From PVC group bacterium (ex Bugula neritina AB1) (lineage in GTDB: Bacteria > GCA-001730085): a stretch of DNA of 64,000 bases. The notes under the pieces were generated by a model. The model ran no database searches. It saw nothing but the letters and a program-made list of their open reading frames with translations, and was not told the origin of the DNA. A program made the position numbers and the translations under genes. This document shows, piece after piece, positions 849 to 56,012 of the stretch (the first letter of the stretch is position 1; every line of letters begins with the position of its first letter). Where the stretch lies: assembly GCA_001730085.1 (NCBI GenBank), contig MDLB01000107.1, forward strand, positions 34,432 to 98,431, in the 5' to 3' direction.

Positions 849-1805
849 TTACGAATTTTCTTTCTGAAAGATATCAAAAGGAGAATCCCCCTCGCCCAAA
901 GCAAATTTAAAAAAAGACTGTTGCGCCTGAACCCATATATTTTCCGAAGACCCCTTATCCTTTAAAGCTTTCTCCCAAAAAAGAGACGTTTCCTTCAGCC
1001 CCCCAGGCCTATGTGTATCAAGCTTAGGCAAGCCCCACTCTTTTGGATCAATAAAGCCTTCAACTTTTTTTTGTCCAATTTTACGGATATACCTTGTCGG
1101 CCTTTTCCAACAAATATCAGATGTCCCTTCTTCCCCAAAAACAAGCGTAACATTCTCTATGCGCCCCTCCATTGCATAAAAATACCTACCTACATAAGGC
1201 TCATGATGCAAAGTCAAAATAGCATGCGTCGCTCCATATGGATTCAAAAGTTTCTCAATCGTATGTAAAAAACTACGAAGACCAACTTCATTGCGCGAAG
1301 AAATAAGTTCTTCATAAAAAGAATACAACTCACATGCATCCCAAAGAACAGGATAATTTTCTAAAGAAAGAGGAATGTTTTGCAAAAAAGGATTTTCAGA
1401 AGAAAAAAGATCCCTTTCTGTTAAACCATATTTAGGACCTATCCCTCGAGCCCCTCCAACAACAACAGGAATACCTGCTTCTTGCAAAAGACCTGCAACT
1501 AACGGAGAAAGGTAAACACTTCTTTTCTTTCCATCAAAAGGACTAGACACAAGCAAACTTCTCGTATTAAAAGGCTTAAAAGGAGAAGGATATGCCTGCT
1601 CCCAAGCATCAAGAAACCCTTTAATTTCATCCTTTGTCGTAGTCTTTCGGCGCATTAACAAAAACAAAGCACCTAAATTTTCTCGAGAAAAGGCCTTCTC
1701 AAAAATCAAAAGACTCATTAAATCAAATGCCTCTTGATATGTATAATCTCTAGATGATCTAGGCCCATTACCTATGATTTTTAAAAATTTAACGGAAGGA
1801 TTCAC
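849..1805 (-). CDS. Glycosyltransferase family 3 (TrpD-like) protein, divergent. The PRPP-binding GTGGD and KHGN motifs are replaced (SSPFD, VGGA). Possibly a TrpD2/YbiB-type non-catalytic homolog.
   Basis: The segment SSPFDGKKRSVYLSPLVAGLLQEAGIPVVVGGARGIGPKYGLTERDL aligns to the TrpD core GTGGDGxxxNISTxxAxxxAxxGVPVAKHGNRSxSSKSGSADxLE. The N-terminal helical region resembles the TrpD N-domain. Only 28 bp downstream of hlyD, so possibly co-transcribed. Confidence 0.45.
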   Translation of the reverse strand: MNPSVKFLKIIGNGPRSSRDYTYQEAFDLMSLLIFEKAFSRENLGALFLLMRRKTTTKDEIKGFLDAWEQAYPSPFKPFNTRSLLVSSPFDGKKRSVYLSPLVAGLLQEAGIPVVVGGARGIGPKYGLTERDLFSSENPFLQNIPLSLENYPVLWDACELYSFYEELISSRNEVGLRSFLHTIEKLLNPYGATHAILTLHHEPYVGRYFYAMEGRIENVTLVFGEEGTSDICWKRPTRYIRKIGQKKVEGFIDPKEWGLPKLDTHRPGGLKETSLFWEKALKDKGSSENIWVQAQQSFFKFALGEGDSPFDIFQKENS

Positions 1806-1833: not shown

Positions 1834-3009
1834 TTATTTTTCCCCACCTGCTTCGGAAAGGGTTTTTCTTATAGGCTTTAGGATAAAGTCAATAACTCGC
1901 CTATTTCCGGTTAAAATGCTAACCTGCGCCGTCATTCCCGGAGAAACCTCTATCGTCCTCCCTATCCTAGTCTCAAAAGGACTTTCTGGCAATTTCACAT
2001 ATACCCGATAATAAGTCTGTTCTCCAAAGCGTGTTTCCTCTTTTAAGGTATCCGCACTCACATAAACAACTTCTCCAGATATACCGCCATAAATAGTATA
2101 GTCATAAGCATCAAAATTAATATTCGCAAACATTCCTGGACGAAGACCAGCAATATCTGCCGGGCGAATATTAACCTCAACAATCAACTCATCATCCAAC
2201 GGAACAATATTCATAAGTTCCTCACCACCCCGTAGCACAGCTCCTGGCGTTGTCAATTTAATATTTCGAACAATTCCCCTAACAGGTGCTTTTAAAATAG
2301 TATCATCTCTTTGCTGAATCCTTTGCTGCCTAATCTGCTCATTTTGACCGATCAAGTCTTCCACTTCAGCAAGCTTTTCATGAATAGATCGAAAATATGC
2401 ATTTCTGCGATTAATAAGCTGAGACCTAGCATTATTCAAAAGACCTTCAACCCTTAACACTTCCAAACGACTGACATCTCCCTTTGATTTCAAAGAGGTG
2501 GTAAGTTTTAACTCCTCTTCAGCCAAAGATACTGCTTTTTCTAAAACCTCCATCTCCTCTTTAAAAGCTTTTGTCCTTTGATTAAAAAGCAACCGCTGAA
2601 AAAGAACAACATCTGGATACTTATCAACTTCCGAAGGGAAAGAAACTGTATTCAAATTATTAATTTCTGACTTTAAGCGTGATTCGTGTGCATATAAAGA
2701 AGCTAGCTTGGCCTCTATCTCATTAACAGCCGAAGAGATTCTCTCCGTTTCCATATGTGCAAGAACTTGGCCAGCCTCGACGGAGTCTCCCTCTTGAACA
2801 AACAATGATTCAAGAACCCCACCATCAACAGACTGTATAACTTGAACACGACTTTTAGCAATAACTTCTCCCGCCCCTCTAACAACCTGCTCAATACTGT
2901 AAGCATAAGTCCAATAAACAAAAACCATAAATGCAAAAAAGATAACCCAAAAAAGAACTGACTTTGTCATCCCAGCTTTTTTTTTATCTACATTTTCATA
3001 CATATTCAT
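1834..3009 (-). CDS. hlyD: Type I secretion membrane fusion protein (HlyD family)
   Basis: N-terminal TM anchor, long coiled-coil region, and a C-terminal beta domain typical of HlyD/EmrA periplasmic adaptor proteins. Adjacent to the ABC exporter. Confidence 0.88.
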   Translation of the reverse strand: MNMYENVDKKKAGMTKSVLFWVIFFAFMVFVYWTYAYSIEQVVRGAGEVIAKSRVQVIQSVDGGVLESLFVQEGDSVEAGQVLAHMETERISSAVNEIEAKLASLYAHESRLKSEINNLNTVSFPSEVDKYPDVVLFQRLLFNQRTKAFKEEMEVLEKAVSLAEEELKLTTSLKSKGDVSRLEVLRVEGLLNNARSQLINRRNAYFRSIHEKLAEVEDLIGQNEQIRQQRIQQRDDTILKAPVRGIVRNIKLTTPGAVLRGGEELMNIVPLDDELIVEVNIRPADIAGLRPGMFANINFDAYDYTIYGGISGEVVYVSADTLKEETRFGEQTYYRVYVKLPESPFETRIGRTIEVSPGMTAQVSILTGNRRVIDFILKPIRKTLSEAGGEK

Positions 3010-3019
3010 CTCTAAGCCT

Positions 3020-5149
3020 CTATTTCTTTACAGATTCTTTCGCGGAAGCGATTTGCCTCAAAACATCTTCCGAATTACCATCAACCACAATTTTTCCGTT
3101 TTTCATAACCATTATCCGGTTAGCCAATTCTATTAATTTCGGCCGGTGCGTAACAACAACTAAAATATCTTTTTCTCTAACATAGTTACGCAATAGAGAT
3201 AAAACCCTTGCCTCTGCTTCATTATCCATAGATGCGGTTGGCTCATCCAATAACCATATATTTGGCATAGACAAGAAAAGCCTAGACACAGCAACAAGTT
3301 GTCGCTGCCCAACAGAAAGACCTACGCCTCCCTCACTAATCTTAACCTCCATCCCTCGAAGATTATCGGCAGCAATTTTATCTAACCCCAAATATTGAAT
3401 AACTGATAAAAATCGCGCATCATCGACCAATCCGGACATCATCATGTTGCTTCGCAAAGTCCCTTTAAAGAGATGAACATCTTGAGGCAAATAACCAATA
3501 GTTTTATTAATAATATGCTGATCGAGCTGCCACATATCTGCATTACCCAAAAGAACTCTTCCCGAAGAAGGAAAAGACAACCCTGCAAGCATCTTAAGAA
3601 GTGTAGACTTCCCTGAACCACTCGAACCCAAAATAGCGACACGGTCACCTTCTTTTAAAGATAAAAATGGAATTTGCAATCTAAGAACAGGCTCTTCTTT
3701 GGAATAAGAAAACTGTATATCCTTTAAAGTCAAAGAGTTCTCAATCTTTTCGGGAGCCAAAGAGTCTGCATTCTCTTCTCTAAAAGGTTCTAAAGACAAC
3801 AATTCATCAAGAGCCGCCATAGAATGCCTAACGTTTTCCCATTGACTCAACCTCTGAACCATTTGAACAACAGGACCTGAAACCCTTCCAGACAAAATAG
3901 TACATGCAATCAATCCACCCATTGTCAACTGACCCGCTTCGATCTCTCCAACCCCAACAAAAACAGTCGTAACATAAGCAATACTAGACATTGCCATACT
4001 GCTATTTTGCGCAATATCTATGACCATCTTATTCCTAAAAGAAGACCTCGACGATGAAGAAGAAATCGCCTTCCAAGCATCACTAAACTTCCAAGATGCT
4101 CCTGAACTAAAAATAGTTTCTGACCCTCGAATCGTATCAACAAGAAGTCCTTGTCTTTCACTGGACCTACTAATAATTTCTTTAGAAAGAGAACTCATCC
4201 GAAAGCGAATCCAAAGCCCTATCAATACAGAGATAAAAAGAAGAACAACCGGAACAAATCCAACACGACCACCTACTGCAAAAATAACCACAATAAAAAA
4301 AGCAACAAAAGGCAGATCCGTGAATGTAAAAATAATAGACGAAGAAAAGAAATTACGCACTGACTCCAACCCATTAACCTGAGAAGTTAAAGTCCCTATA
4401 CTTTGAGGTCTACGGTCGGGTCGAATATTCAACATATGATCATAAACTTTTTGTGAAATTTCACGATCCATATCGCTTGAAACATTATTCAAAATCCACG
4501 TGCGAATGTATTTCAAAAGCCAATCGACAAAAATAATCACCCCTATCGCAAAAGTCAATGTGAGCAAAGTGGCACGCGCGAAAGAAGGAACAACTCTATC
4601 GTAAACCTGAATAGAGTACATCGATATCGCAACTGCCAAAACATTTATAAGAACTGTTGCCAATAAAACCTCTACGAACCATCTTTTAGTTTTAAACATA
4701 GCTTTAAAAACCAACCCCAAAGAAGGACTACTGATAGATATTCCTTTTTTACGCGATTGTAAAACTTTTAAAAGCAAAACCTTTGATTGACCCAAAGACT
4801 CTTCTGAGATCGAAGTTTCAGCAAAATCCTGATCCGTTAAAACAAACTCACTTTCTTCACAAGAGTGAACAACATACCACTTGTCATCATGAGATACAAG
4901 CGCTGGCAAATATCGCTTATCCAGTCGATCCCATGGGATCAAAAGTCCTTGAACATTACGACAGTTAACCTTTTTAAAAACATAGTAAAGTTGCTCTAAT
5001 AAAGGTTTTGCTGCAAGATCTGGATCTTTTTCAATTTCTGAACAAGCCTGTTGCAACTGAGTAGGAGAAACAGCAACGCCCAACTTAGACAATAAAATTC
5101 TAAGTGTATTATGCTCTAAAAAGTTTTCTTTTTTAAGATCTTCTGACAT
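3020..5149 (-). CDS. hlyB: Type I secretion ABC transporter (HlyB-like): N-terminal C39-like domain, 6-TM domain, and C-terminal NBD
   Basis: Walker A GSSGSGKST, ABC signature LSVGQRQ, Walker B LLDEPTASMD. The N-terminal ~130 aa resemble the HlyB C39-like domain (TLRILLSKLGVAVSPTQLQQ ... LPALVSHDDKWYVVHS) without an obvious catalytic Cys motif. Confidence 0.9.
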   Translation of the reverse strand: MSEDLKKENFLEHNTLRILLSKLGVAVSPTQLQQACSEIEKDPDLAAKPLLEQLYYVFKKVNCRNVQGLLIPWDRLDKRYLPALVSHDDKWYVVHSCEESEFVLTDQDFAETSISEESLGQSKVLLLKVLQSRKKGISISSPSLGLVFKAMFKTKRWFVEVLLATVLINVLAVAISMYSIQVYDRVVPSFARATLLTLTFAIGVIIFVDWLLKYIRTWILNNVSSDMDREISQKVYDHMLNIRPDRRPQSIGTLTSQVNGLESVRNFFSSSIIFTFTDLPFVAFFIVVIFAVGGRVGFVPVVLLFISVLIGLWIRFRMSSLSKEIISRSSERQGLLVDTIRGSETIFSSGASWKFSDAWKAISSSSSRSSFRNKMVIDIAQNSSMAMSSIAYVTTVFVGVGEIEAGQLTMGGLIACTILSGRVSGPVVQMVQRLSQWENVRHSMAALDELLSLEPFREENADSLAPEKIENSLTLKDIQFSYSKEEPVLRLQIPFLSLKEGDRVAILGSSGSGKSTLLKMLAGLSFPSSGRVLLGNADMWQLDQHIINKTIGYLPQDVHLFKGTLRSNMMMSGLVDDARFLSVIQYLGLDKIAADNLRGMEVKISEGGVGLSVGQRQLVAVSRLFLSMPNIWLLDEPTASMDNEAEARVLSLLRNYVREKDILVVVTHRPKLIELANRIMVMKNGKIVVDGNSEDVLRQIASAKESVKK

Positions 5150-6422
5150 GCTTCACCCCTGCATATGAATCTAAGTCCCCAATCAAAATAGATATTTGCA
5201 AAATTTTTTGCAATTCTTGTGTCCGCACACCTTCAAGTTGTTGTTGCAGAGAAAACTTTTCTTTCTGAAGGTTCAAAATTTCCAACCAAGACTTATGTCC
5301 TGAGTCAAACTGGCGCAAAAAAGAGGTTTGAGTATCTTTGATCAAGTCCAAAGAGCGCTTCAAATACTCTTGAATTTCTTTTTGGGTCTTGATCTGATAT
5401 ATCAAGTCAAGTAATTTTTCAGCAACATCAACTTTCACATCTTCCACTCTCTGCACAGCAACTTCCATTTGCTGTTTTTTTCTCTTCACATCAGCTATTT
5501 TTTGAAGCCCCATACCTGCCCAATCAGACTCCATAACAAGTCCCGCTCTTGTTTCTTCCTTCACATTGGAAAACATTTGATATTCAAACCGCCCCTTAAA
5601 AGTAGGGAAAAACTCCCTAAAACTCGCCTTCAAAGAATTTTCCATGCGGTCAAAAGCTATCTTTTCAGCTAAAACTTCGACCGAGTTTTCATGCGCTCGA
5701 CGAACCAGTTCAGATGTATCTAAAGAATGAATATTTTTTGAAAAACAATCTTCATCTAAGTAGTTAGTCGAATGCAAGGACTCTAAAGATCCAAGTTTAT
5801 CATCAAAAGTGATAAGCCTCAGCTTCTCCAAAACTTGCTCAACCCTACCTCTAACAGTTGCAAGAGTACTTTCAGCATCAAGAGCTCTAACTTGTGCCAA
5901 TTGAACATCCGCCTTAGGGGCATAGTCTCCTTCAAATCGACTCGTTATAAACTTCACCAAAAGATTATGTTCTTCCAAATTATCCTGAGCAAAAGCGAGC
6001 TGCTTACGCGCACCTATCAGTGCCACATACTGAAAAGCAACTTTTTGCATAACCTCACGACAGGTGGACAAATGTTTAATTTGAGATTCTTCTAAATTGA
6101 TTTTTTGAGATTTGACACGGGTATTGATTTTTCCAAAGTCAAAAACGACTTGATCAATCTGAGCAACAGCCTTACTTTCCTTGTCATCAACACTTCCATA
6201 GCCATTAACAATAAACTTTGGAAAGAAATCAGCCCTTGTCTGTTTCACAGAGAATTCGGCTGAATTAATTTCAGCTAAAGCAACTTTAACTTTCGGATGA
6301 TTTTGAACCGCAGAAATCAGCGCTCTAGAAAGCTGGCCAGCAAAAATTTCATCCCCTCCAACACTACTGAAGAAGAAAAAAAGAACACAGGTTATGCGTA
6401 AGCTTTGCATATAAAGACGCAT
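5133..6422 (-). CDS. tolC: TolC-family outer membrane channel protein (T1SS outer membrane component)
   Basis: Signal peptide, coiled-coil/beta-barrel repeat architecture of TolC/OprM-family proteins. 17-bp overlap with the hlyB start indicates an operon. Confidence 0.75.
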   Translation of the reverse strand: MRLYMQSLRITCVLFFFFSSVGGDEIFAGQLSRALISAVQNHPKVKVALAEINSAEFSVKQTRADFFPKFIVNGYGSVDDKESKAVAQIDQVVFDFGKINTRVKSQKINLEESQIKHLSTCREVMQKVAFQYVALIGARKQLAFAQDNLEEHNLLVKFITSRFEGDYAPKADVQLAQVRALDAESTLATVRGRVEQVLEKLRLITFDDKLGSLESLHSTNYLDEDCFSKNIHSLDTSELVRRAHENSVEVLAEKIAFDRMENSLKASFREFFPTFKGRFEYQMFSNVKEETRAGLVMESDWAGMGLQKIADVKRKKQQMEVAVQRVEDVKVDVAEKLLDLIYQIKTQKEIQEYLKRSLDLIKDTQTSFLRQFDSGHKSWLEILNLQKEKFSLQQQLEGVRTQELQKILQISILIGDLDSYAGVKHVRRS

Positions 6423-6792
6423 TTATATCTCCCTTTAACTATTTTCCCAAAAAACACAGTTCAAAATTGTAACAAGATTTTTTGAAGAAAACAAGAAAAA
6501 AAGAGTTAAGAAGCCTCCTCTCTATATTTGGATTTTTTTCGACAGAGGTATGCAAGCCTGTTGCGAAATATAGAAACTAAAAAAACACTCCAAAAAAACT
6601 CCGAAAAGCCTCTCGGAGAGCCTCTCAAAAGAGCGACAAGCCTTACTGCAAAAGAGTATAAAATATTACTTTAAAAACTTTTTTAAGTTTTTAAAAGTTC
6701 AACCTGTGTTAGGTTAGATTTCTACAACCCAAACATCTTTAAATAATTATTATAAATCTTTGTCAAGATGAAACTATTTGACTTTGTAAAAT

Positions 6793-8067
6793 TTAGCTCG
6801 CACTGTTTAGTTTGTCACAAGCTTGTTTAAGAATATTCAATGTTATTTTATGAGCTGGAGTTGAGGTTTCATCAGAAGCTATACTTGGGAAAAAGCCTCT
6901 TTTCTTAATATCCTCAAGGTTTAAATCTTGTCTTTCCCAAAGACATTTTGGAGAGTTCTTCTGACATAAAAGTTGCAACATATTTTGATCCCCAAGCCCC
7001 AAGTCAACAAACTTATGCTTTACTCCATCTTTGCCTAGTACAAAACCCGTATCTCCTCCCTCTGGAATTTGGGTATAACATCTATCTCCAAAGGCAATCA
7101 CTTCTTCTGCAACTTCAGAAAGAGAAGTATCGTCTCGTCTAGAAATGTCTTCCATAATTCTCTTAACCGCAGATTGTTTATCCGATCTACATATAGCCAA
7201 AGTTTTGTCGTCCCATAGAGAAACTTTAGCATCTGGCTTTTCTTCGTTTTTAAAAAAAAATTCGATTTCTTTACAAAGAATCTCTATTTCTTTTGTTTTA
7301 TCACGCAAAGGAGGATGATCTCCCTTAAATGTAATCTGTATCTGTGATAAACCATTTCTTGCCTCATTTTTAAGATCTTCAGTCTCACTCGTTATCGGAT
7401 TGACAGTCAATTCGTAATCTGTCCATATTTCTTTAATAGCGTCAGTAATCGCCTTGTTAAATTGGATATCTAATTTATCTTGTAAAACATACTTCTTTGA
7501 ATATTCCTTATCTAAACTAAACCTTTTTTTATTAGAGTCAAAAACATATCTTGCAGCACCTTGCAGAGCATATAAGACAAAATTATTGAATAAACAATTC
7601 AAAAGTAACTCTGAATTATTGGACTTTAAAATTCTTTGAACAAGAGGGTCCAAAATACTCCTAAATGCAATCCCTTCATAAGCAGCTGTTACTAAATAAA
7701 CAGACTTCCCGTTCAAAAGAAAGGATATAAAAATATCTAAAAGATCATCAGATACTGGAGTCATTCGAGCATCTTCAGATAAAGTGTCATCCACATCAAA
7801 AACCAAAATTTTTGAATTAACAACAGTCTGCGCAGCCATTTTTACCGTTACATCACGAAATCTTTCGAAATGTAACTTTTGTTCCTCACTAAGTCTTTGA
7901 ATGTCAAAATCTTTCCCAGACATCGTATTAATAATTTCTTCAAGCTTTTGCCTGTATCTTCCCTTGTGGCCATCTTCTTCAATAAGCGAACTAAAAACAG
8001 CAAGTGGAAAAAGGTTAGAAACATATATAAACATTACGAACATCATAAATAATAGTTTTGCTTTCAT
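6793..8067 (-). CDS. Hypothetical exported HAD-superfamily hydrolase-like protein
   Basis: N-terminal hydrophobic signal/anchor (MKAKLLFMMFVMFIYVSNLFPLAVFS). HAD motif I LVFDVDDTL, motif II-like VYLVTAA, possible motif IV AFGDRCYTQIPEGGD. Confidence 0.45.
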   Translation of the reverse strand: MKAKLLFMMFVMFIYVSNLFPLAVFSSLIEEDGHKGRYRQKLEEIINTMSGKDFDIQRLSEEQKLHFERFRDVTVKMAAQTVVNSKILVFDVDDTLSEDARMTPVSDDLLDIFISFLLNGKSVYLVTAAYEGIAFRSILDPLVQRILKSNNSELLLNCLFNNFVLYALQGAARYVFDSNKKRFSLDKEYSKKYVLQDKLDIQFNKAITDAIKEIWTDYELTVNPITSETEDLKNEARNGLSQIQITFKGDHPPLRDKTKEIEILCKEIEFFFKNEEKPDAKVSLWDDKTLAICRSDKQSAVKRIMEDISRRDDTSLSEVAEEVIAFGDRCYTQIPEGGDTGFVLGKDGVKHKFVDLGLGDQNMLQLLCQKNSPKCLWERQDLNLEDIKKRGFFPSIASDETSTPAHKITLNILKQACDKLNSAS

Positions 8068-27115: not shown

Positions 27116-28918
27116 CTAAGATTTCCTATATTTCTCAATATGAATCATCAAAACAGATATATCTGCGGGGCTAACCCCCATAATTCTACTCGCCTGACCA
27201 AGATTCACAGGCAAAACTTGAGCCAATTTCTCTTTCGCTTCTTTTTTTAAACCTTGCAAGTTTTCAAAAGAGAAACCCTTAGGGATTTTTACATTATCCA
27301 AGTGCTTAACCTTTTCCAACCTCTTATTTTGACGCAAGAGATACCCCTCATACTTTATCTCAGACATGACAAGCTCTTTCAAATCATCTGAGATCGTAGG
27401 AAGTTCAGGAGACACCGGATACTGAGAAATATCCTCTCCTCCCCCCTTCAATAAGGCTTTCATCTTAGGGTCACGCACTATTAAGCCCTTCAGTCTTTTC
27501 AATTCCTTACTCAACGTTTTTTTCTTATCAAGAAAGTCGCAATATTGCGCATAAGGGATTAACCCTACCCGATACCCATACTCTGTTAGACGCATATCAG
27601 CATTATCATTCCGAAGATAAAGACGGTTCTCCGCAGCAGAAGTAAACATGCGATAAGGTTCTTCTGTATTCTTAGTAATCAAGTCATCAATAAGAACACC
27701 TATATATGACTCATCCCTTGACAAGGTTAACGGCTTCTCTTTCTTGATCTTCAAAGCTGCATTAATCCCCGCAACCAAACCCTGCGCAGCTGCTTCCTCA
27801 TAACCAGAAGTTCCATTAACTTGCCCTGCCAAATAAAGACCCTCTATGTTTTTCGTCTCTAACGTTGGGTTTAATTGATTCGGGAACAAAAAATCATATT
27901 CTACAGCATAACCATATCTCAGAACTTTAGCCTTTTCCAAACCTTCAATACTATGAATCATCTCCAATTGCACTTCCTTAGATAAGCTCGTCGACAAACC
28001 ATTCACATAAACCTCATTTGTCGAAAGACTCTCTGGCTCTAAAAAAATTTGATGCCTTTCTCTTTCAGGAAAGCGAACGATTTTATCTTCAAAAGAAGGA
28101 CAATAACGAGGACCTATTCCTTTAATTTTTCCTGTAAAAAGAGGAGAACAATCTAAATTATTTTCAACAATCTTATGTGTTTTAAAATTCGAATAAGTCA
28201 CATGGCAAGAAATATGATCCAACCTTTCCTTTGGAGGAAAAAACGAAAATGTTCTCAAAGGAACATCGCTCGGCTGATCTAATAAGCCTTCATAGTTAAT
28301 CGTTTGCATATCAATACGAGCAGGGGTTCCTGTCTTTAGACGTCCCAACCTAAAACCCATCTCTTGCAAAGCATCAGACAAGCCTACAGAAGCATTTTCT
28401 CCATCCCTACCACCATCATACCCCTTTAACCCTCTATGAATATATCCATTCAAAAAAGTTCCAGAAGTAATAACAAGAGCCTTAGAAAAACAATCCTCAC
28501 CATCTTCCAAAGAAACTCCCTTAACCTTATCTCCATCCATAAGCAAATGAGTAACCATGCCATTTTTAACCGTTAAGTTTTCTTGAGAAGCGACAATTCG
28601 TTGCATCCTTTGAGCATACAAATATTTATCAGACTGTACTCGATAAGCACGAACAGCCGAACCTTTTTTAGTATTCAAGACCCGAAACTGAATCGCAGTT
28701 GCATCTGCATTCTTACCCATTTCACCACCCAGAGCATCAACCTCTCTAGCTAACTGACTTTTGGCAAGCCCTCCGATAGAAGGATTGCACGACATTTTTC
28801 CAATAACAGAGGAATCCATGGTTATCATCATTATATTAAGACCCATACGGCTGGCAGCTAAGCTCGCCTCACAACCAGCATGACCACCTCCAACAACTAT
28901 AATATCAAAAATTTCCAT
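27116..28918 (-). CDS. mnmG: tRNA uridine 5-carboxymethylaminomethyl modification enzyme MnmG (GidA)
   Basis: FAD-binding VVGGGHAGCEA at the N-terminus, full-length GidA similarity. Confidence 0.95.
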   Translation of the reverse strand: MEIFDIIVVGGGHAGCEASLAASRMGLNIMMITMDSSVIGKMSCNPSIGGLAKSQLAREVDALGGEMGKNADATAIQFRVLNTKKGSAVRAYRVQSDKYLYAQRMQRIVASQENLTVKNGMVTHLLMDGDKVKGVSLEDGEDCFSKALVITSGTFLNGYIHRGLKGYDGGRDGENASVGLSDALQEMGFRLGRLKTGTPARIDMQTINYEGLLDQPSDVPLRTFSFFPPKERLDHISCHVTYSNFKTHKIVENNLDCSPLFTGKIKGIGPRYCPSFEDKIVRFPERERHQIFLEPESLSTNEVYVNGLSTSLSKEVQLEMIHSIEGLEKAKVLRYGYAVEYDFLFPNQLNPTLETKNIEGLYLAGQVNGTSGYEEAAAQGLVAGINAALKIKKEKPLTLSRDESYIGVLIDDLITKNTEEPYRMFTSAAENRLYLRNDNADMRLTEYGYRVGLIPYAQYCDFLDKKKTLSKELKRLKGLIVRDPKMKALLKGGGEDISQYPVSPELPTISDDLKELVMSEIKYEGYLLRQNKRLEKVKHLDNVKIPKGFSFENLQGLKKEAKEKLAQVLPVNLGQASRIMGVSPADISVLMIHIEKYRKS

Positions 28919-29788
28919 TAAAAACTACACCCTTTATCTCTAAAAAAAAGCCTTAATTATCAAGAAAGTTCTCTAAAAAATCAAAAAGAATATTCTTTAA
29001 AACAATAAAAATACAAAAACATTTCGTTTCAAAAAATAACTAATCTTCGCTTATGTATGTTTTAAAAATAACAAAAAATATAAAAAATCTTACAAAATAT
29101 TTTACTACGGAAACATTATACAAATAAACGAAAAGTGAAATTTTATAAAAATTCATATTTTAAAACGATTATCGTCTCATATTTTATTTTAATTTTCAAG
29201 AAAAGAAGATTTTAAAGAGTAAAGTTTTTTCACAAAAGATCAAAAACGTACAACTCATTCATCAAAAACAATACCCCTACAACTCTCTTCCCATCAAACA
29301 ACGTTCCCAAAGGAACATCACTGAACATTTTTTTCCATATAAGAATTTTAAACCTTCACCTTTAATAAAGAAGAGTAGGGCAGAGAACCTTCAATATCTA
29401 TTAGCTCAAATAAAATTGCTAAGAAAAACAAAATACAAAGTCTCTAAAAAAGTCATACCTTAAAATTGCAAAAAAAATCCTAACACCAAAACCTAAAAGA
29501 TCTTTATCCTCTCTTAAAAGATATTCCTATAAAGCTCTTTCCATCAAACAACGTTCCCAAGGGAACATCACTAAATATTTTTTCCATATAAGAATCCTAA
29601 ACCCTCGCCTTTAATAAAGAAGAGTCGGACAGGGGAGCCTCAACATCTATTAGTTCAAATAAAAATCCTGAGAAAAACAAAACACAAAGTCTCTAAAAAA
29701 GTCATACCTTAAAATTGCAAAAAAATCCTAACACCAAAATCTAAGAGATCTTCATCCTCTCTTAAAAGATATTCCTATAAAGCTCTTT

Positions 29789-30660
29789 CCATCAAACAAC
29801 GTTCCCAAGGGAACATCACGAAATATTTTTTCCATACAAGAATATAAAACCTTCACCTTTAATAAAGGAGAGTAGGACAGAGAAGCTTCAATATCTATTA
29901 GCACGAATAAAAATCCTAACACCAAAACCTAAGAAATCTGCATCCTCCCTTAAAAGATATTCCTATAAAGCTCTTTCCATCAAACAACATTCCCAAGAGA
30001 ACATCACTAAATATTTTTTCCATACAAGAATATAAACCCTTCACCTTTAATAAAGGAAAGTAGGGCAGAGAAGCTTCAATATCTATTAGCACGAATAAAA
30101 ATCCTAACACCAAAACCTACGAGATCTGCATCCTCTCTTAAAAGATATCCCTATAAAGCTCTTTCCATCAAACAACGTTCCCAAGGGAACATCACTGAAT
30201 ATTTTTTCCATATAAGAATTTTAAACATTCACCCTTAATAAAGGAGAGTAGGGCAGAGAAGCTTCAATATCTATTAGCACGAATAAAAATCCTGAGGAAA
30301 ACAAGATACAAAGTCTCTAAAAAAGTCATACCTTAAAATTACAAAAAAATCCTAACACCAAAACCTAAGAGATCTCTATCCTCTCTTAAAAGATATCCCT
30401 ATAAAGCTCTTTCCATCAAACAACGTTCCCAAGGGAACATCACTAAATATTTTTTCCATATAAGAATTTCAAACCTTCACCTTTAATAAAGGAGAGTCGG
30501 ACAGGGGCGCCTCAACATCTATTAGTTCAAATAAAAATCCTGAGAAAAACAAAACACAAAGTCTCTAAAAAAGTCACACCTTAAAATTGCAAAAAAATCC
30601 TAACACCAAAATCTAAGAGATCTTCATCCTCTCTTAAAAGATATTCCTATAAAGCTCTTT
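29789..30660. repeat. Higher-order repeat copy 1 (S-S-L-L, 872 bp)
   Basis: Unit boundaries at 29789, 29977, 30165, 30413 and 30661. The first ~376 bp are near-identical to copy 2. Confidence 0.85.
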
Positions 30661-31530
30661 CCATCAAACAACGTTCCCAAGGGAACATCACGAAATATTT
30701 TTTCCATACAAGAATATAAAACCTTCACCTTTAATAAAGGAGAGTAGGACAGAGAAGCTTCAATATCTATTAGCACGAATAAAAATCCTAACACCAAAAC
30801 CTAAGAAATCTGCATCCTCCCTTAAAAGATATTCCTATAAAGCTCTTTCCATCAAACAACATTCCCAAGAGAACATCACTAAATATTTTTTCCATACAAG
30901 AATATAAACCCTTCACCTTTAATAAAGGAAAGTAGGGCAGAGAAGCTTCAATATCTATTAGCACGAATAAAAATCCTAACACCAAAACCTACGAGATCTG
31001 CATCCTCTCTTAAAAGATATCCCTATAAAGCTCTTTCCATCAAACAACGTTCCCAAAGGAACATCACTGAACATCTTTTCCATATAAGAATTTTAAACCT
31101 TCACCTTTAATAAAGGAGAGTCGGGCAGGGAAGTCTCAATATTTATTAGTTCAAATAAAAACCCTGAGAAAAACAAAACACAAAGCCTCTAAAAAAGTCA
31201 CACCTTAAAATTGCAAAAAAATCCTAACACCAAAATCTAAGAGATCTTCATCCTCTCTTAAAAGATATTCCTATAAAGCTCTTTCCATCAAACAACGTTC
31301 CCAAGGAAACATCCCTGAAATTTTTTTCCATACAAGAATTTAATTCCTTCATTTTTAATAAAGGAGACTACGGCAGGGAAGCCTCAATATTTATTAGTTC
31401 AAATAAAATTGCTAAGAAAAAAAATACAAAGTCTCTAAAAAAGTCATACCTTAAAATTACAAAAAAATCCTAATACCAAAAACTAAGAGATCTGCATCCT
31501 CTCTTAAAAGATATTTCTATAAAGCTCTTT
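30661..31530. repeat. Higher-order repeat copy 2 (S-S-L-L, ~870 bp)
   Basis: Unit boundaries at 30661, 30849, 31037, 31285 and 31531. Confidence 0.85.
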
Positions 31531-31958
31531 CCATCAAACAACGTTCCCAAGGGAACATCACTGAATATTTTTTTCCATACAAGAATTTAATTCCTTCATT
31601 TTTAATAAAGGAGACTAGGACAGGGAAGCGTCAATATCTATTAGCTCAAATAGAATTGCTAAGAAAAACAAAATACAAAATCTCTAAAAAGAGACAAATC
31701 TTAAACTCATAAAAAAAATACAAAAGACAACAGTCTAAACAAACAAAAACTCTAGAAAAAATATCATTAAATATTTTTTTCATATCAATAAATTTCAATT
31801 AAATATAAAAAAAGAGAAGTCGAAGAGCGAAAGATAGCAAAGTAAATATCAGATCAAAAAGAAAGAGGAGAAGTTTCGAAAAAGATAACTAAAAAGGGAA
31901 TATTCAAAAAATAAAAAAACTCATAAGAAAAAAACCGTCAGAAAAAATTTAAGAAAAA

Positions 31959-33350
31959 CTACTTCCCAATACAAAAATTAGCAAAGAATTTTTTCAAAAT
32001 ATCTTTATCGTACTCTTCTCCCAAAAGAGCAGATAAACTCTCAAGAGCCTCCTTTAAAAAAGTCACCAAAATCTCTTGATGGAAATCCAAAGTTAAATCA
32101 AGAGCTTCCCTCAAAGAGGTCAATGCCTCTTTGACAAAATCAATCTGCCTTTGATTCAACATAAAGACATCCTCATCAAAACTTAAATCTTTCCTTAATT
32201 CAAACTTCAATTTTTCTTCTAGTTCAAACAAAGAGTCCCAGTTCAATGCACTAACAAAAAAAGGCTCAAATGGTGCAACCATTTTTTGTATACTTTTAGC
32301 GATATCCTCTTGCAAACAATCCTTCTTATTTACAAGAACAAAAAGCCTTTGCCCAGAAGATTTCTCCGCCAAAGTCTTACCCCAAAGAACTCTATCTTCC
32401 TCTTCAAAAGAACTTCCGCTCAAAACAAAAAAAATCACATCTGCTTTTTTCACTTCTTCTGAGGTTTTTTGAACACCTATTTTTTCAACAGAATCAACGG
32501 TCTCTCTCAAACCTGCTGTATCAACCAATCGAACACATCTATCAGCAAAAACAATTGCAGCATCAACAACATCCCTCGTCGTTCCCGGAACATTACTAAC
32601 AATCGCTCGATTTTTCCTCAAAAAAGCATTAAAAAGACTAGATTTGCCCACATTTGGCTTCCCAGCAAAAACAAGAGTAATATCATTGCTCAAAGATTTA
32701 GATCGCTTAAAAGAGGCCTCAAGAGCTTCTAAATCAGAAATAATCTTACTTAATTTTTCAGAATAAACATTTTGACTCAAAAAATCGATTTGCTCTTGAG
32801 AAAAATCAAGCTCAGCCTCCAAATAAAGCAAAAGACTTTCTAAAGAATCCTTAGCCGATCGAACTCTCAAAGAAAGATCTCCACCAACTTGCCTAACTAA
32901 GCGCTGTGCCGCACTCCGACTTTTAGAGTGAATAAGATCTGCAACAGCCTCCGCCTGCATCAAGTCCTTTTTTCCCAAAAGAAAAGCTCTTTTAGTAAAC
33001 TCTCCCGGCTCAGCCAAAGACGCGCCGAGCTCAACTGTTTTTTCTAAAATAAAATCTACAATAACAGGACTACCATGACAATGAAATTCAACAAGATCCT
33101 CCCCCGTATAACTATTCGGAGCTAAAAACTTCACAACCATCAACTCATCGATCTTTTCTTGTTTTTGACTAGGATCAACCAAATGAGCCAAATGCAAAGT
33201 TCTCGAAGCAGAATTCTTAAGAAGTTTTCCCGAAAAAAGCTGTAACAACTTATCAGAAATAAAAACAGACTGTGACCCTGTCATCCTCAAAACAGCCAAA
33301 GCACTACAAGCAACGGGAGTAGCTGGCGCAATTATCGTTTCGTGAAACAT
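31959..33350 (-). CDS. mnmE: tRNA modification GTPase MnmE (TrmE)
   Basis: G domain (GKPNVGKSSL, DTAG), C-terminal CIGK tetrapeptide. Confidence 0.95.
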   Translation of the reverse strand: MFHETIIAPATPVACSALAVLRMTGSQSVFISDKLLQLFSGKLLKNSASRTLHLAHLVDPSQKQEKIDELMVVKFLAPNSYTGEDLVEFHCHGSPVIVDFILEKTVELGASLAEPGEFTKRAFLLGKKDLMQAEAVADLIHSKSRSAAQRLVRQVGGDLSLRVRSAKDSLESLLLYLEAELDFSQEQIDFLSQNVYSEKLSKIISDLEALEASFKRSKSLSNDITLVFAGKPNVGKSSLFNAFLRKNRAIVSNVPGTTRDVVDAAIVFADRCVRLVDTAGLRETVDSVEKIGVQKTSEEVKKADVIFFVLSGSSFEEEDRVLWGKTLAEKSSGQRLFVLVNKKDCLQEDIAKSIQKMVAPFEPFFVSALNWDSLFELEEKLKFELRKDLSFDEDVFMLNQRQIDFVKEALTSLREALDLTLDFHQEILVTFLKEALESLSALLGEEYDKDILKKFFANFCIGK

Positions 33351-45715: not shown

Positions 45716-45914
45716 AAAATCAGATATTTTGTACAAAGGACTCTTTAAATGTTATACTTAGGATCTTGGGATCGTTTCAAAGGGTATTCATAAACTATCT
45801 TTCAATGAAAATCATATGTACGACTTTGTAAGTATCTCATATGCGATTTTTTCTTAACTTTTTCGTTATTCAAATAAGCCTTTGGAACGATTGTTAGCAA
45901 GTTATTTATTAATA

Positions 45915-48014
45915 ATGAATAACTTTAAAAAATCTATTAACACGTGCAAAGTTCTTACTATAGAAGAAAGGTGTGTCGTAAAAGTGTACTGTGGTCATTG
46001 TGGCGCCTATGGAGACAGCAAAAATGTTTTTTGTATTAATTGTGGTCATCAGTTAAGCTCTGAAGCCACGATACAAAACTCTTTAAAAACTCAGCCATAT
46101 AAAGATCCCTCTCTTTCACAAACATCAGACTCATCTAAAAACTCGATCACGAGAACCATTCCGAGTAAAAACTTAAGAACAGATACATCTCTTCCAAGTA
46201 AAAAATATTTTCAAAATGGATTCATTTTCGCTGACCGCTACAGGATCGAAAACTTGTTAGGAAAGGGTGGAATGGGTGAAGTTTATAAGGTTTACGATTT
46301 AAACCTAGGCGAAGTCCGTGCTTTAAAAGTTTTAAACCCATCCTTTCTAAATAACGCCGACTTACTTCAACGCTTTGAAAACGAAGCACAAATGATCCAC
46401 AGGATGAATCATATTAACCTAGTAAAATTTATAAATTATACCCACTTTGAAAATACACCATATATAGTCATGGAGTATGTCAAAGGTATTTCTTTACGAG
46501 AATGGATGAATAAGCATGGGGTAAATGCCCCTTTGAAAGAAACTATAGATATTATTATAAAGGTTTGTCAAGGATTAAAAGAGGTCCATAAATATATAAC
46601 TCATAAAGATATCAAACCTGAAAATATCATAATATCAGAGAGTGGTTCAGTAAAAATCGTAGACTTTGGTATATCTCAACCTCCAGGCTTTTCCATTCTC
46701 TCTAATGATAACTCTTCTATAGGAACAGTTTACTATGCAGCCCCTGAGCAAACAATCTCTCCTTCGAACATTGATCAGCGTGCAGATATTTTTTCTGTTG
46801 GTGTAATCATTTACGAAATGCTTTACGCGAAAGTTCCAATAGGTAGATTCAAAATTTTACCTTCAAAGAAAAAAAATATAACAAAAAAATTAACAGAAAT
46901 AATACAAAAATCTTTAGAATCTGAAGTGGAAGATCGCTACCAATCAATAAACTCTTTGCTTGTAGATTTAACTGACCAATACAATAAGATATCTAATCCA
47001 AAATTTTCACCGGAACAAAAAAAATCTTCGAACAATACTGAAACTATCCCTAAAAAAAATAACAATTTTTCCACATTTTTATCGATTTTAATCATAATAG
47101 CTATTTTTTTCACTATCTCATATATAGCTTATAAGAAAACTTTTGCCTCATTACTCTCTACTCCTCAACTCTTCGCCCCTTCTCAATTTTTAGATACGGA
47201 GAACCTTTCGGAAAAAAAACACCAGATACATCAAAACCCAATGTTTATTGCTTCTAAAAAACTAAGGATCCCTTTTAGCTTCATTGCTGTTAATCATTTT
47301 CAAAGAGGTGATATCTGGGGGGATGGAGAAGTCGATGAAACCCCTGTCAAAAAAATTCATATGGACTCTTTCTATATGAGCCAATACGAAATAACAAATG
47401 GCCAATACAAAGTTTTTATTAATAGTACAAATTATCCTCCCCCTGTTAATGCGTTAGGAGAGGATAGTGACTATACGATTTGGAATAACAACTATATATC
47501 AGAAGAACTTCTAAACTTTCCTGTCGTGAATATCTCATGGGTAGATGCCAACGCTTTTTGTCGCTGGTTATGTGAATATGAAAATGTCCCACTATCAACT
47601 TATAGATTACCGACCGAAGCAGAGTGGGAGTTTGCGGCTACACCTCTTCGAAAGAATAAATACCCCTGGGGTAATGAGTTTCCGGACTATCAAAAAGCTA
47701 ATTTTGGTAAAAAATGGATGGGAGCTTTAACCTTGAAAAAAGTTGGAAGTTATCCTCCTAATAATAACTTTTTATATGATATGGCTGGTAATGTTTGGGA
47801 GTGGTGCCAAGATACCTATGAAAAAGATTTTTATAATAAAGACATTAAGGAAAACCCCATTTCATACTCACAAACTGATAATCGTGTTCTAAGGGGAGGT
47901 GCTTGGAGTAGTTATGGGCATTTACTAAGAACTTCCAACCGCCACTATAATGATAAAAATAGTCGCTATTATGATAATGGTTTTAGGATCGTGAGAACCA
48001 TCGACAATTCATAG
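45915..48014 (+). CDS. Serine/threonine protein kinase with an N-terminal zinc ribbon, one TM helix and a C-terminal FGE-sulfatase (SUMF1-like) domain. Start uncertain: track start is TTG 45882; candidates are ATG 45915 and a GTG just before YCGHCG.
   Basis: CGHCG...CINCGH zinc ribbon; Hanks kinase motifs GKGGMGEVY, ALK, HKDIKPEN, DFG, APE; a TM segment FLSILIIIAIFFTISYIAY; a C-terminal FGE-like domain ending RGGAWSS... Confidence 0.85.
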   Translation: MNNFKKSINTCKVLTIEERCVVKVYCGHCGAYGDSKNVFCINCGHQLSSEATIQNSLKTQPYKDPSLSQTSDSSKNSITRTIPSKNLRTDTSLPSKKYFQNGFIFADRYRIENLLGKGGMGEVYKVYDLNLGEVRALKVLNPSFLNNADLLQRFENEAQMIHRMNHINLVKFINYTHFENTPYIVMEYVKGISLREWMNKHGVNAPLKETIDIIIKVCQGLKEVHKYITHKDIKPENIIISESGSVKIVDFGISQPPGFSILSNDNSSIGTVYYAAPEQTISPSNIDQRADIFSVGVIIYEMLYAKVPIGRFKILPSKKKNITKKLTEIIQKSLESEVEDRYQSINSLLVDLTDQYNKISNPKFSPEQKKSSNNTETIPKKNNNFSTFLSILIIIAIFFTISYIAYKKTFASLLSTPQLFAPSQFLDTENLSEKKHQIHQNPMFIASKKLRIPFSFIAVNHFQRGDIWGDGEVDETPVKKIHMDSFYMSQYEITNGQYKVFINSTNYPPPVNALGEDSDYTIWNNNYISEELLNFPVVNISWVDANAFCRWLCEYENVPLSTYRLPTEAEWEFAATPLRKNKYPWGNEFPDYQKANFGKKWMGALTLKKVGSYPPNNNFLYDMAGNVWEWCQDTYEKDFYNKDIKENPISYSQTDNRVLRGGAWSSYGHLLRTSNRHYNDKNSRYYDNGFRIVRTIDNS

Positions 48015-48555: not shown

Positions 48556-49367
48556 ACCGCAATAGGAAACTTTATAAAAGGTCCATGCTGATAATCATGA
48601 AGAGTGATGTCTTCATAAAGAAGATCAAAAAAAGGTTTTTTAGATATAGTGACTCTAGGTAAAGGCAATATATCTCTTTTTAACTGCTCTTTAAGCCCTT
48701 CGACATGATTAAGATAAATATGCGCATCTCCTATGGTGTGAGTAAAAATACCTGGAGTCAAAGAACATTCTTGTGCAACCATCATTAAGAGCAAAGAGTA
48801 GCTGGCAATATTAAAAGGAACACCTAACGCAACATCTGCCGATCGTTGATAAAGCTGACAGTCTAAACGTTTATCGTTCACATAGAATTGAAAAAAAGAA
48901 TGACAGGGTGGGAGTTTCATCTGGTCCAAATCTGCAACATTCCAAGCACTAACGATCAATCGACGTGAATCAGGAGTCGTCTTTATCAAATCAATAACTT
49001 GCTTTATTTGATCCACATGTTCTTTTTGATATTTTTTAGCATTCTCATCCCAAACAAATTTTTCCCAAAATCGCCATTGATAACCATAAATAGGCCCTAA
49101 GTCTCCGTTCTCATCTGCCCAAGAGTCCCATATAGACGTATATTCACTTAAACCATCATGAATATTTGTTGCTCCTTTTAAAAACCAAAGGAGTTCTCGA
49201 ACAACCGAAGAGAAAAAAACTTTTTTTGTTGTAAGAAGAGGGAAGCCTTCTCGTAAATCATACTTTGTTTGAGTTCCAAATATAGACAAAGTTCCTGTAT
49301 TGGTTCTGTCGTTTTTTTCTTCTCCCTCTGTCAAAACTTTGTTAACCAAATCTAAGTACTTTTTCAT
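48552..49367 (-). CDS. thyA: Thymidylate synthase (ThyA type)
   Basis: Active-site PCH ([12 protein letters not shown]) and a highly conserved ThyA sequence. Confidence 0.95.
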
Positions 49368-49569
49368 AAAAACCCCTCACTTGAGATCAAAGCAAATATT
49401 TACTCACAAGATTACGAGCTTTGAAAAATACCTCATAATCTTGCTTGTCGTTCTTTTTTTTAATTTTGTCATAAAAAAGCCCATCTCTATTACGGACACG
49501 AACTTTTATCGAAATAATAAACTGTTGAAAAGCTTCTTCCAATACAAACTATGTGGTATTTTGACCTAA

Positions 49570-50287
49570 TCTAAAGATTTATATCTTATAATAAAGATTG
49601 TGACAATAATCTCGATACCTTGAAAAAAGGTTAACAGCTAGTGCTTTTTACGGCTAAAAGTAACACTTATAATCTTACTTAAGAAAATTAAAATAAGCTA
49701 TTTTTTTTTTTGACTACCAAAAATCATAAAAAAGATAACCTGTGGATAACATGTGTCTAATTTATGAATACAACTATTTTAAGAAAAAAAATAAATCTTA
49801 TTACCCAAATTCTAACTAGAAAAAAGCAGTAACAGCTGGCTAATTTATAATATTAAAGATTTAGAAAAAAATATATAAAAAAAAGATCCAAAAGAATAGA
49901 TCAATTACATTTATTTTAATTTTATATATTATTATTTAGCATATATATATTTATTTTAAAAGAAATTATAATATTTTTTCTTGATCAAAGAATTTAAAAA
50001 AGAAAACTTATATAAAAAAATCAAACCATATTCATCATTGTGTACATCAAGTTCTCAAGTTATAATACAACATGTGCATAACTTGTGCGTAAGTATTGAT
50101 TTTATAAACAACAAGATCTTTGGACAACATTCTACATCCCCAATAAGGGCATTATGAATGTTTGTACAAAAAGCTTTATACACCTCTGCTCCCCTTTTCT
50201 CACAAGTGATTAGATACTGAGATAAAAAGTAGAAGCTAAATGCTTTCTTTCTGAAGAAGTAAAAAGTATATAGGAAGTTTAGACATA
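49570..50287. promoter_or_regulatory. Candidate oriC left part: DnaA box TGTGGATAA (49741-49749) with an adjacent GATAACC half-site, followed by an extremely AT-rich stretch (about 49880-49990, candidate DNA-unwinding element) upstream of dnaA
   Basis: A perfect reverse-complement TTATCCACA consensus. A 920-bp gene-free AT-rich region immediately upstream of dnaA. Confidence 0.55.
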
Positions 50288-51643
50288 ATGACATTCAATA
50301 ACATAGAAACTTTAAAGGAAGCTCTAAAAGACCTGATTGGAAAAAAATCCTACGAAACTTGGTTTCAAAGTTTGGATATAGAAATGACAGAGCAGGATAG
50401 TTGGACAATATGGACACCTAATCTTTTTTATAAGCAAAGGGTTGAGCAACAGTTTAAAATCCCAATCAAAGAGGTCTCAAAAGCACTCTCCTGTGAGATA
50501 GATATTCATGTTAATCAAAAAAATCATTTATCTAAAAATGTTCCATCTAAAACAGAAGAAGCTTCTGAACAACCTTTTCAAAAAAAAAAAACAACATCTA
50601 CAGATGAGCCTCAAAGTGTCTCTTCTTCGAAGTCACTTTTTAAGTACTCCTTTGATAACTTTATTGTTGGTCCTAATAACCAGTTAGCACATGCAATCGC
50701 CCTTGCCGTTTCCACAAATCCAGGTCAAACATATAATCCTTTTTTTCTATATAGTCCTGTAGGATTAGGGAAAACACATATTATGCAAGCCATCGCAATG
50801 AGTATTCAAAAACATAACCCCGAATATAAAATCAAATACTTATCCACAGAACAGTTCACAAATGAACTGATCGCATCCATCCAAAATAAAACAATTGAAC
50901 AGTTTAGAACGAAATACAGAACTATGGATGTTTTGCTTTTGGATGATATCCAGTTTCTAGAAGGAAAAGAACGAACACAAGAAGAGTTCTTTCACACCTT
51001 TAATCAATTGTATAATGAAAACAAACAAATAATACTTAGTTCTGACCGTTCTCCCACAGATATCCCACGCTTAGAAGATCGCCTTATTTCACGTTTTGAA
51101 TGGGGAATAAAAGCTGATATAGAAGCACCAGACTTTGAAACACGTGTGGCTATTTTGCAAAAAAAATCAGAAAATACACAGGCTCGTATTTCTCCAGATA
51201 TCTTACAGTACATAGCCTCTAACTTCACATCAAATATTCGAGAGCTGGAAGGTGCTTTACTAAAAGTCTTAGCTCTTAGTCAATTCCAATCCACAGAAAT
51301 ATCCCTAGATACTGTTCAGCAACATTTTCAGCCACAAAAGAAAGCTCCAACTGTTCATTTAACACCTGATCGGATCCAAAATATCATATGTGAACACTTT
51401 AATATAAGTATAGAAGACCTTAACTCTTCAAAAAGGAAACGTATGATTGTAATTCCTCGACAAATAGCTATGTACCTCTGTCGAGAGTTAACAGCCTATT
51501 CTTTTCCAGAAATAGGTGCTTTTTTTGGAGGAAAAGACCATACAACTATTATGCATGCGCATGAAAAGTTAAAAAAAAGCTATCAAACGGATCAGGAATT
51601 AAAAATAACTATTGATAAGCTAATAGAAAAAATACGTGGATAA
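50288..51643 (+). CDS. dnaA: Chromosomal replication initiator protein DnaA
   Basis: AAA+ Walker A GPVGLGKTH, a sensor region, and a C-terminal DNA-binding domain (box-binding helix ...IGAFFGGKDHTTIMHA). Confidence 0.97.
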   Translation: MTFNNIETLKEALKDLIGKKSYETWFQSLDIEMTEQDSWTIWTPNLFYKQRVEQQFKIPIKEVSKALSCEIDIHVNQKNHLSKNVPSKTEEASEQPFQKKKTTSTDEPQSVSSSKSLFKYSFDNFIVGPNNQLAHAIALAVSTNPGQTYNPFFLYSPVGLGKTHIMQAIAMSIQKHNPEYKIKYLSTEQFTNELIASIQNKTIEQFRTKYRTMDVLLLDDIQFLEGKERTQEEFFHTFNQLYNENKQIILSSDRSPTDIPRLEDRLISRFEWGIKADIEAPDFETRVAILQKKSENTQARISPDILQYIASNFTSNIRELEGALLKVLALSQFQSTEISLDTVQQHFQPQKKAPTVHLTPDRIQNIICEHFNISIEDLNSSKRKRMIVIPRQIAMYLCRELTAYSFPEIGAFFGGKDHTTIMHAHEKLKKSYQTDQELKITIDKLIEKIRG

Positions 51644-52104
51644 GTTGGTAGATCCTGTGGATAACCTATTGATAAGTGTCATAGATATCCACAGTCAGCT
51701 AAACAATTCCTTGTTGTATTCACAAAAAATATCACTTTTTTCCCAAGGGATCAACAAATAAAACTTTTTGTTCTTCCCGTAATTTAGAGAGTTTTATAGG
51801 TTATCCACAATTTTAATCCACCTATGATAATGATGATGATTTTTATAATCTATAATAAAATAGAAGTATGGCTACAGTGAGACATATCGCTCAATGGATA
51901 ATCAGATATCTTGAGATTCGATATCTAAGAGCTTCTGATAAAGAACTTTTTATCTCTTATCCTAGTTATATTTTTTAGTTTATGAGCTAATTAGTACGGA
52001 ACTTTATCGTAGGCTGATTCAAAATTAGCAAAAAATAGAATAAAGCATAATATTATTAAATATTTTTTAATAAATAAGTCTTTAAGTAAAAAAAACAAAA
52101 AAAT
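51635..52104. promoter_or_regulatory. Candidate oriC right part / dnaA-dnaN intergenic DnaA-box cluster
   Basis: CGTGGATAA (51635-51643, overlapping the dnaA stop), TGTGGATAA (51657-51665), ATATCCACA (51685-51693), TTATCCACA (51801-51809), a weak TTAATCCAC (about 51813-51821), then an AT-rich tract. Confidence 0.6.
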
Positions 52105-52170
52105 ATGTCTGATTTTTTTGTAAAGTCTCGCTATAATAGGATTTACATCCATTTTAGAAAGGTTAATTTT

Positions 52171-53274: not shown

Positions 53275-53304
53275 GAATTTTTACAAAAAAGATGAGGTGA
53301 ATTT

Positions 53305-56012
<2,708 letters not shown>

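Follow-up and report, generated by a model that had tools for sequence, protein, structure and literature searches.

The lapE-lapB-lapC genes of Pseudomonas fluorescens follow the order outer-membrane factor (OMF), ATP-binding cassette (ABC) exporter and membrane fusion protein (MFP), and the same order is found in the type I secretion system (T1SS) operon examined here. This operon lies at positions 1834-6422 of a 64,000-nt stretch of contig MDLB01000107.1 (the window, i.e., the whole stretch of DNA that was analysed) from the Planctomycetes-Verrucomicrobia-Chlamydiae (PVC) group bacterium (ex Bugula neritina AB1). Both LapEBC and the LssBD-TolC system of Legionella pneumophila are linked to it by the family model TIGR03375 ("LapB" in KEGG), which is the best family model for its exporter, and by the non-catalytic N-terminal C39-like domain (CLD) that they have in common. 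LssBD of L. pneumophila, the best-studied LssB system, has been reported to secrete RtxA (lpg0645) through the outer-membrane protein lpg0827, and the genes given for the lssXYZABD locus include neither of the two (PMC6959600), so that a substrate encoded away from its transporter, as suggested here, has a precedent in this group. On the other hand, the exporter is only 42-48% identical to any relative, its signature motif reads LSVGQ, and its host belongs to the PVC group (NPL-UPA2) and not to the proteobacteria. Unlike in LapEBC, no LapG protease (BTLCP type), LapD receptor for cyclic di-GMP or retention-module adhesin is encoded in the 10 kb that flank the operon on each side.

The HlyB-HlyD-TolC system of Escherichia coli provides the best match of the exporter among solved structures, both by sequence (HlyB, 7SGR/8DCK, E 7e-64, over the second half of the CLD and all that follows it) and by structure, since the CLD of HlyB (3ZUA) is the nearest fold and the N-terminal nucleophile Cys is absent in both. 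The two exporters are nevertheless only ~23% identical; HlyB keeps His83, whereas the clade of the present exporter has an invariant Trp in its place. The gene arrangements are also reversed, as hlyA is linked to the hly operon and tolC is not, while here it is the OMF that is linked and the substrate that is not. Finally, the exporters of the peptidase-containing (PCAT) type, such as PCAT1, ComA, CvaB and LahT, share the overall architecture of an N-terminal papain-like domain followed by transmembrane and nucleotide-binding domains; however, the present exporter lacks the catalytic Cys/His pair, has no gene for a double-glycine (GG) leader peptide nearby and scores lower with the corresponding NCBIfam models (197-246 bits). 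The system is thus a divergent addition to the known LapB/LssB-type T1SSs, a finding that is real but ordinary.

A complete OMF-ABC-MFP operon

The locus is confirmed as a complete OMF-ABC-MFP type I secretion operon and is no chance pattern. Three co-oriented and closely packed open reading frames (ORFs) on the minus strand span 1834-6422, with the following features:

5133-6422, minus strand: TolC-like outer-membrane factor, 429 aa, first gene of the operon (AB834_06850, a locus tag inferred from the tag order, between AB834_06845 and AB834_06855)
3020-5149, minus strand: ABC exporter, 709 aa (AB834_06845)
4760-5149, minus strand: C39-like domain, residues ~1-130 of the exporter, placed with the AlphaFold2 (AF2) model, Foldseek and alignments
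1834-3009, minus strand: HlyD-family periplasmic adaptor (the MFP), 391 aa

A preliminary description had presented tolC, hlyB and hlyD as a single overlapping operon. Its completeness is borne out by the Pfam and NCBIfam matches, but overlap is restricted to the OMF and ABC genes, which share 17 nt, the ABC and MFP genes being separated by a gap of 10 nt. None of the three ORFs carries a frameshift or stop codon, and all are full length when compared with their homologues (OMF, 429 versus 419-420 aa; ABC, 709 versus 711-736 aa; MFP, 391 versus 392-393 aa).

The individual components can be assigned to T1SS families with differing precision. The OMF matches both repeats of Pfam OEP (PF02321, E 1e-38, 133 bits against a cutoff of 22) and scores 99 bits with TIGR01844 (type_I_sec_TolC), the TolC-specific NCBIfam models all remaining below their cutoffs; its N-terminus is signal-peptide-like. 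The adaptor surpasses the 208.65-bit cutoff of TIGR01843 (type_I_hlyD) with 288.7 bits and also matches Pfam HlyD_3 and HlyD_D23. The exporter consists of a C39-like domain, a six-helix transmembrane domain (PF00664, ABC_membrane, E 3e-21) and a nucleotide-binding domain (PF00005, ABC_tran, E 6e-28), the last of these with Walker A GSSGSGKST, Walker B LLDEP and an H-loop THR. Its three best NCBIfam models all describe T1SS exporters (TIGR03375, type_I_sec_LssB, 578.9 bits; HlyB, 335; PrtD, 327), so that it is classified as a T1SS exporter. The nearest relatives in the databases are 47-48% identical and many of them are named LapB. In GenBank, both the exporter and AB834_06855, the gene directly upstream of the OMF, are labelled "hypothetical protein"; the annotation of the former can therefore be improved to T1SS exporter, and it is mainly in annotation that the value of the finding lies.

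The proposal that the N-terminal domain of the exporter resembles the non-catalytic domain of HlyB has been sustained by structure prediction. The AF2 model of residues 1-153, built with 57 homologues, reaches a predicted local distance difference test (pLDDT) score above 90 for residues 10-130 (mean 82). When this model was compared with the PDB using Foldseek, the best match was 3ZUA (E 2e-5), followed at ranks 2-19 by the peptidase domains of PCAT1 (E 1e-3) and of ComA and LahT (E 3e-3 to 1e-2), from which it follows that the domain has the C39 fold. The first Cys of the exporter is residue 36, well after helix 1 (residues 13-22), which opens with H-N-T. In both a phmmer and a multiple alignment the column of HlyB His83 is occupied by Trp91, and each of the 58 clade members examined has a Trp at this position. 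According to the model and these alignments, the domain is a non-catalytic CLD in which the catalytic Cys/His dyad is absent, and the exporter would therefore act without cleavage of a leader peptide. A catalytic C39 peptidase serving a bacteriocin exporter can be ruled out, as the exporter has no match to Pfam Peptidase_C39 (PF03412), the dyad is missing, and the 371-nt spacer upstream of the OMF contains no plausible GG-leader ORF; the eight ORFs found there are just 20-48 aa long, and six of them start with TTG.

Taken together, these data make it rather likely that the locus encodes an intact and probably functional T1SS of the CLD-bearing LapB/LssB clade whose cargo is encoded elsewhere in the genome. 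The system is probably active and, by homology with HlyB- and LapB-type systems, the exporter dimer would bind unfolded cargo, with the non-catalytic CLD acting as its cytoplasmic docking or chaperone site. ATP hydrolysis would then power its translocation, with the C-terminus leading, through the ABC dimer, the adaptor and the operon-encoded TolC-like channel, and the cargo would arrive at the cell surface or in the medium with its N-terminus unprocessed. Such cargo would most probably consist of one or a few acidic, Cys-poor and repeat-rich proteins that carry a C-terminal signal and have their genes in another part of the 1.9-Mb, 108-contig draft; it could be adhesin-like, with cadherin and repeats-in-toxin (RTX) motifs as in the nearest relatives of the system (see below), and its gene could be broken in the assembly or missing from it. 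Indeed, long repetitive genes are likely to be fragmented in a draft with an N50 of 27 kb (PMC5041132). That an uncultured, deeply branching and animal-associated PVC bacterium with a genome of 1.9 Mb keeps a complete LapB/LssB-type machine, together with its own outer-membrane channel, implies that at least one secreted or surface protein, probably an adhesin, is important for its lifestyle.

Several observations weigh against this interpretation. The exporter remains under the TIGR03375 cutoff (578.9 versus 693.1 bits), even though this is by far its best model, and it is thus to be regarded as a divergent relative of the LssB/LapB clade and not as a certified member. It is also the most divergent exporter of the clade. 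In an alignment with 128 columns invariant across 19 clade members, this exporter included, it was found to carry 14 private substitutions at columns invariant in the 18 relatives, as compared with 0-5 for the others, which could reflect relaxed constraint. Among these is G613V, which turns the signature motif LSGGQ into LSVGQ (3311-3325; ABC residues 609-613), LSGGQ being present in all 19 of the other aligned sequences (18 clade members and HlyB). In addition, neither the window nor the adjoining 10 kb on its left has yielded a substrate. With respect to the signature motif, LSVGQ is a natural variant in functional nucleotide-binding domains of the ABCC type. The divergence of the exporter probably reflects a long branch and not decay, given that divergence is genome-wide in the AB1_div bin, in which the mode of protein identity to nr is only 43% (PMC5041132). 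This bin, from the marine bryozoan Bugula neritina, was assigned to candidate division NPL-UPA2 of the PVC superphylum and comprises 1.91 Mb in 108 contigs, with 34.7% GC and a completeness of 96% (Miller et al. 2016, PMC5041132).

Cargo genes at homologous loci and around the operon

The absence of RTX, GGxGxD-repeat or large repetitive proteins within 10 kb of the operon, put forward in the preliminary description, has been found to extend considerably further. GGxGxD motifs are absent from every frame of the 64-kb window, in which the longest stop-to-stop segment has 836 aa and corresponds to gyrA. Since the window ends 1.8 kb past hlyD, the next 10 kb were read from the same contig in the Logan assembly (L001); they contain only housekeeping genes, namely hisG, a GHMP kinase gene, spoVG, an NTP-transferase gene, prs, rplY, pth, rpsF, ssb, rpsR and rplI. 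Neither an RTX motif nor an ORF above 836 aa was detected in the window or in these 10 kb.

The loci of homologous exporters offer a view of what might be expected beside such an operon. Uncultured bacteria are the source of the nearest exporters (47-48% identity), all of whose loci have the order OMF-ABC-MFP. In three of the four nearest loci (L004, L005 and L006; exporters P0011 and P0003, a close relative of which, P0007, is named Acidaminococcaceae), the order and spacing of the three genes are those seen here, with identities of 47-48% for the ABC exporter, 53% for the MFP (full length, against that of L005) and 27% for the OMF (over 402 aa, against that of L005). Directly upstream of the OMF and on the same strand, these three loci encode a protein with cadherin repeats and HemolysinCabind (RTX) motifs, at a distance of 269 nt in L005 and L006, while the window has an unrelated HAD-like ORFan in that place. 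The linked cadherin/RTX proteins have the properties of textbook T1SS cargo: their isoelectric point (pI) is 4.05, they contain a single Cys, their last 60 residues are free of Lys and Arg, and they end in ...HADDFTFIV. In the fourth locus (L003) the same slot holds nothing notable.

The most similar genome-derived loci, L007 and L008 (42-43% identity), have in the slot upstream of the OMF a protein that combines tetratricopeptide repeats (TPR) with a sulfotransferase domain. These proteins are encoded at 6020-8683 of L007 (887 aa, from a metagenome-assembled genome, MAG, of Myxococcota) and at 5656-8544 of L008 (962 aa, from a Pseudomonadales MAG). The presence of a TPR-sulfotransferase gene upstream of OMF-ABC-MFP thus represents a conserved association, which is reminiscent of RaxST-RaxAB but involves an exporter of the CLD type.

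How frequently a substrate gene accompanies exporters of this kind was estimated with a crude criterion, which required, within 10 kb of the ABC gene, an ORF that either had three or more GGxGxD motifs or was 1200 aa or longer. Among the matches listed, 46 related ABC loci, mostly proteobacterial, had full 10-kb flanks; a candidate substrate was nearby in 31 of these, and none was present in the other 15 (33%). In view of these 15 loci and of the Legionella LssBD/RtxA pair, an unlinked substrate is unremarkable. The preliminary description had concluded that the substrate is encoded elsewhere or is of a novel type. This interpretation is supported, but the absence of a linked substrate is not in itself remarkable and, because unlinked substrates are common, the first of the two options is far more likely than the second.

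Other accounts of the missing substrate gene

An alternative that we consider unlikely is that the transporter is a relic or orphan, its linked cadherin/RTX cargo having been lost during genome reduction, and that it is now cargo-less and drifting, or repurposed. Consistent with this notion, the slot filled by RTX proteins in L004-L006 holds an unrelated, lineage-specific gene here, the exporter bears the 14 private substitutions at clade-invariant positions, the ABC signature motif included, and the genome is small, at 1.91 Mb (PMC5041132). However, all three ORFs are intact and of full length, and the catalytic motifs are preserved. LSVGQ occurs naturally in functional ABCC-type domains, and the high divergence is a property of the whole bin. 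Moreover, that a reduced genome has kept 4.6 kb of coding sequence intact speaks for selection.

It is rather improbable that the cargo is unlinked and, at the same time, of a non-RTX type, for instance host-directed effectors. Ankyrin-repeat and tandem-repeat proteins of this sort have been reported as effectors for the T1SSs of Ehrlichia and Orientia. The absence of RTX motifs from the window and the 10 kb to its left, as well as the long branch of the exporter, would fit with such cargo, but exporters bearing a CLD are classically tied to RTX or adhesin substrates, the nearest relatives with linked cargo all have RTX proteins, and there is no positive evidence for an effector of this class here. 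The organism is also host-associated and its genome reduced (PMC5041132), which would agree with the effector proposal. If the cargo did prove to be non-RTX, the system would constitute a natural case of substrate switching in a CLD-type exporter.

The gene that occupies the slot deserves separate consideration, and the features concerned are as follows:

6793-8067, minus strand: haloacid dehalogenase (HAD)-like protein AB834_06855, 424 aa, directly upstream of the OMF
6599-6630, minus strand: terminator-like hairpin with a T-run behind it, within the 371 nt that separate the genes for AB834_06855 and the OMF
L087 538-1770, L088 9527-11008 and L089 412-690: further loci of the HAD-like family, in addition to 6793-8067 of the window

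AB834_06855 begins with a long hydrophobic, signal-peptide-like N-terminus and contains the HAD motif I FDVDDTL, as had been anticipated for this neighbour. Its similarity to ISN1 (IMP-specific 5'-nucleotidase) is weak (Pfam E 0.003; PDB profile match 6RMD, E 0.03), and its AF2 model, with a pLDDT of 49, is too poor for a fold search. A word-indexed homologue search returned only the protein itself, and a HMMER pass over 1.84 billion representatives retrieved four relatives, three of them from the same bacterium (AB834_06325, AB834_01765 and the fragment AB834_06315) and the fourth a metagenome fragment of 248 aa. The alignment indicates that the full-length paralogues all keep the signal-peptide-like N-terminus together with a DVDGT motif.

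It has to be asked whether AB834_06855, or its paralogue family, could itself be the cargo, in which case it would be a new non-RTX substrate that might be passed on to the T1SS from the periplasm once Sec had exported it. The slot and the strand are those of the cognate substrates in L004-L006, and the family, with at least three paralogues and essentially confined to this bacterium, displays a pattern typical of host-interaction factors. This possibility is nonetheless judged very unlikely. The signal-peptide-like N-terminus of all paralogues points to Sec export rather than to the T1SS, and the composition of AB834_06855 (pI 5.4, 7 Cys, and a Lys-rich C-terminus whose final 60 residues include 9 Lys/Arg and 3 Cys) differs from that of the linked cadherin/RTX proteins, in agreement with the earlier opinion that this neighbour does not look like T1SS cargo. 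AB834_06855 is also devoid of RTX motifs, its paralogues sit among housekeeping genes and away from secretion genes, and the terminator-like hairpin separates it from the operon. Furthermore, the enzyme that fills the slot in L007 and L008 indicates that position alone does not mark a substrate. Little credence is given to a cargo switch in which a member of the family replaced the RTX gene in the slot and the T1SS exports the HAD-like phosphatase family, or other non-RTX effectors, towards the host. We conclude that AB834_06855 is a putative Sec-exported and lineage-specific enzyme that happens to be encoded where the substrate gene lay ancestrally. A testable picture would be that an ancestral linked cadherin/RTX cargo gene has been replaced here by this lineage-specific gene for a secreted HAD-like protein.

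A SecA_DEAD-associated T1SS-like module has been described in Planctomycetes and Verrucomicrobia, with a secondary SecA_DEAD protein in the same neighbourhood (Kamneva et al. 2015, PMC4452313), and it can be ruled out for this locus, as none of the genes called in the 10-kb flanks on its two sides has a SecA domain.

Operon boundaries and the remainder of the window

The hairpin and T-run at 6599-6630 suggest, weakly, that the T1SS operon is a transcription unit of its own. The boundaries of the operon rest on gene spacing and weak consensus matches and are tentative, since the counts from the promoter and terminator scan do not rise above the shuffle expectation (7 terminator-like sites in the region versus 5.7 expected). 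On its downstream side the operon is followed by one further gene:

849-1805, minus strand: divergent YbiB/TrpD2-like protein, 318 aa, starting 28 nt past the MFP stop codon

The description of this gene as a divergent TrpD-fold protein is endorsed by NCBIfam matches, all of which are below their cutoffs (PRK07394, E 2e-31; YbiB, E 5e-24; TrpD, E 4e-7); the Pfam family model misses it, so that the NCBIfam models alone detect it. The gene may be co-transcribed with the T1SS operon, although it is judged to have no functional link to secretion. As a conserved T1SS partner it was discarded, because the gene that follows the MFP in L003 is not similar to it and unrelated genes take that place in the other homologue loci.

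The rest of the window is core chromosome, with the ATP synthase operon, parAB, mnmG/mnmE, yidC, fur and suf genes. The replication-origin region can be placed at 49367-58741, where dnaA (50288-51643), dnaN, gyrB and gyrA are found and a spacer of 0.9 kb precedes dnaA. The GC skew flips sign near 52 kb, and the T1SS operon lies ~45 kb from the origin region, co-oriented with replication.

Two other elements are worth mentioning. Between mnmG (27116-28918) and mnmE (31959-33350) there is an ORF-free gap of 3 kb that is filled by a non-coding tandem array (29285-31717, ~2.4 kb) whose nested repeat periods are 188, 248 and 436 bp, with matches of 88-93%; the array contains only repeated TTG-start ORFs of 57 and 65 aa and gave no match in an Rfam search. 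At 45882-48014, a 710-aa fusion protein joins a Ser/Thr protein kinase domain to a C-terminal FGE-sulfatase domain of the formylglycine-generating-enzyme-like type.

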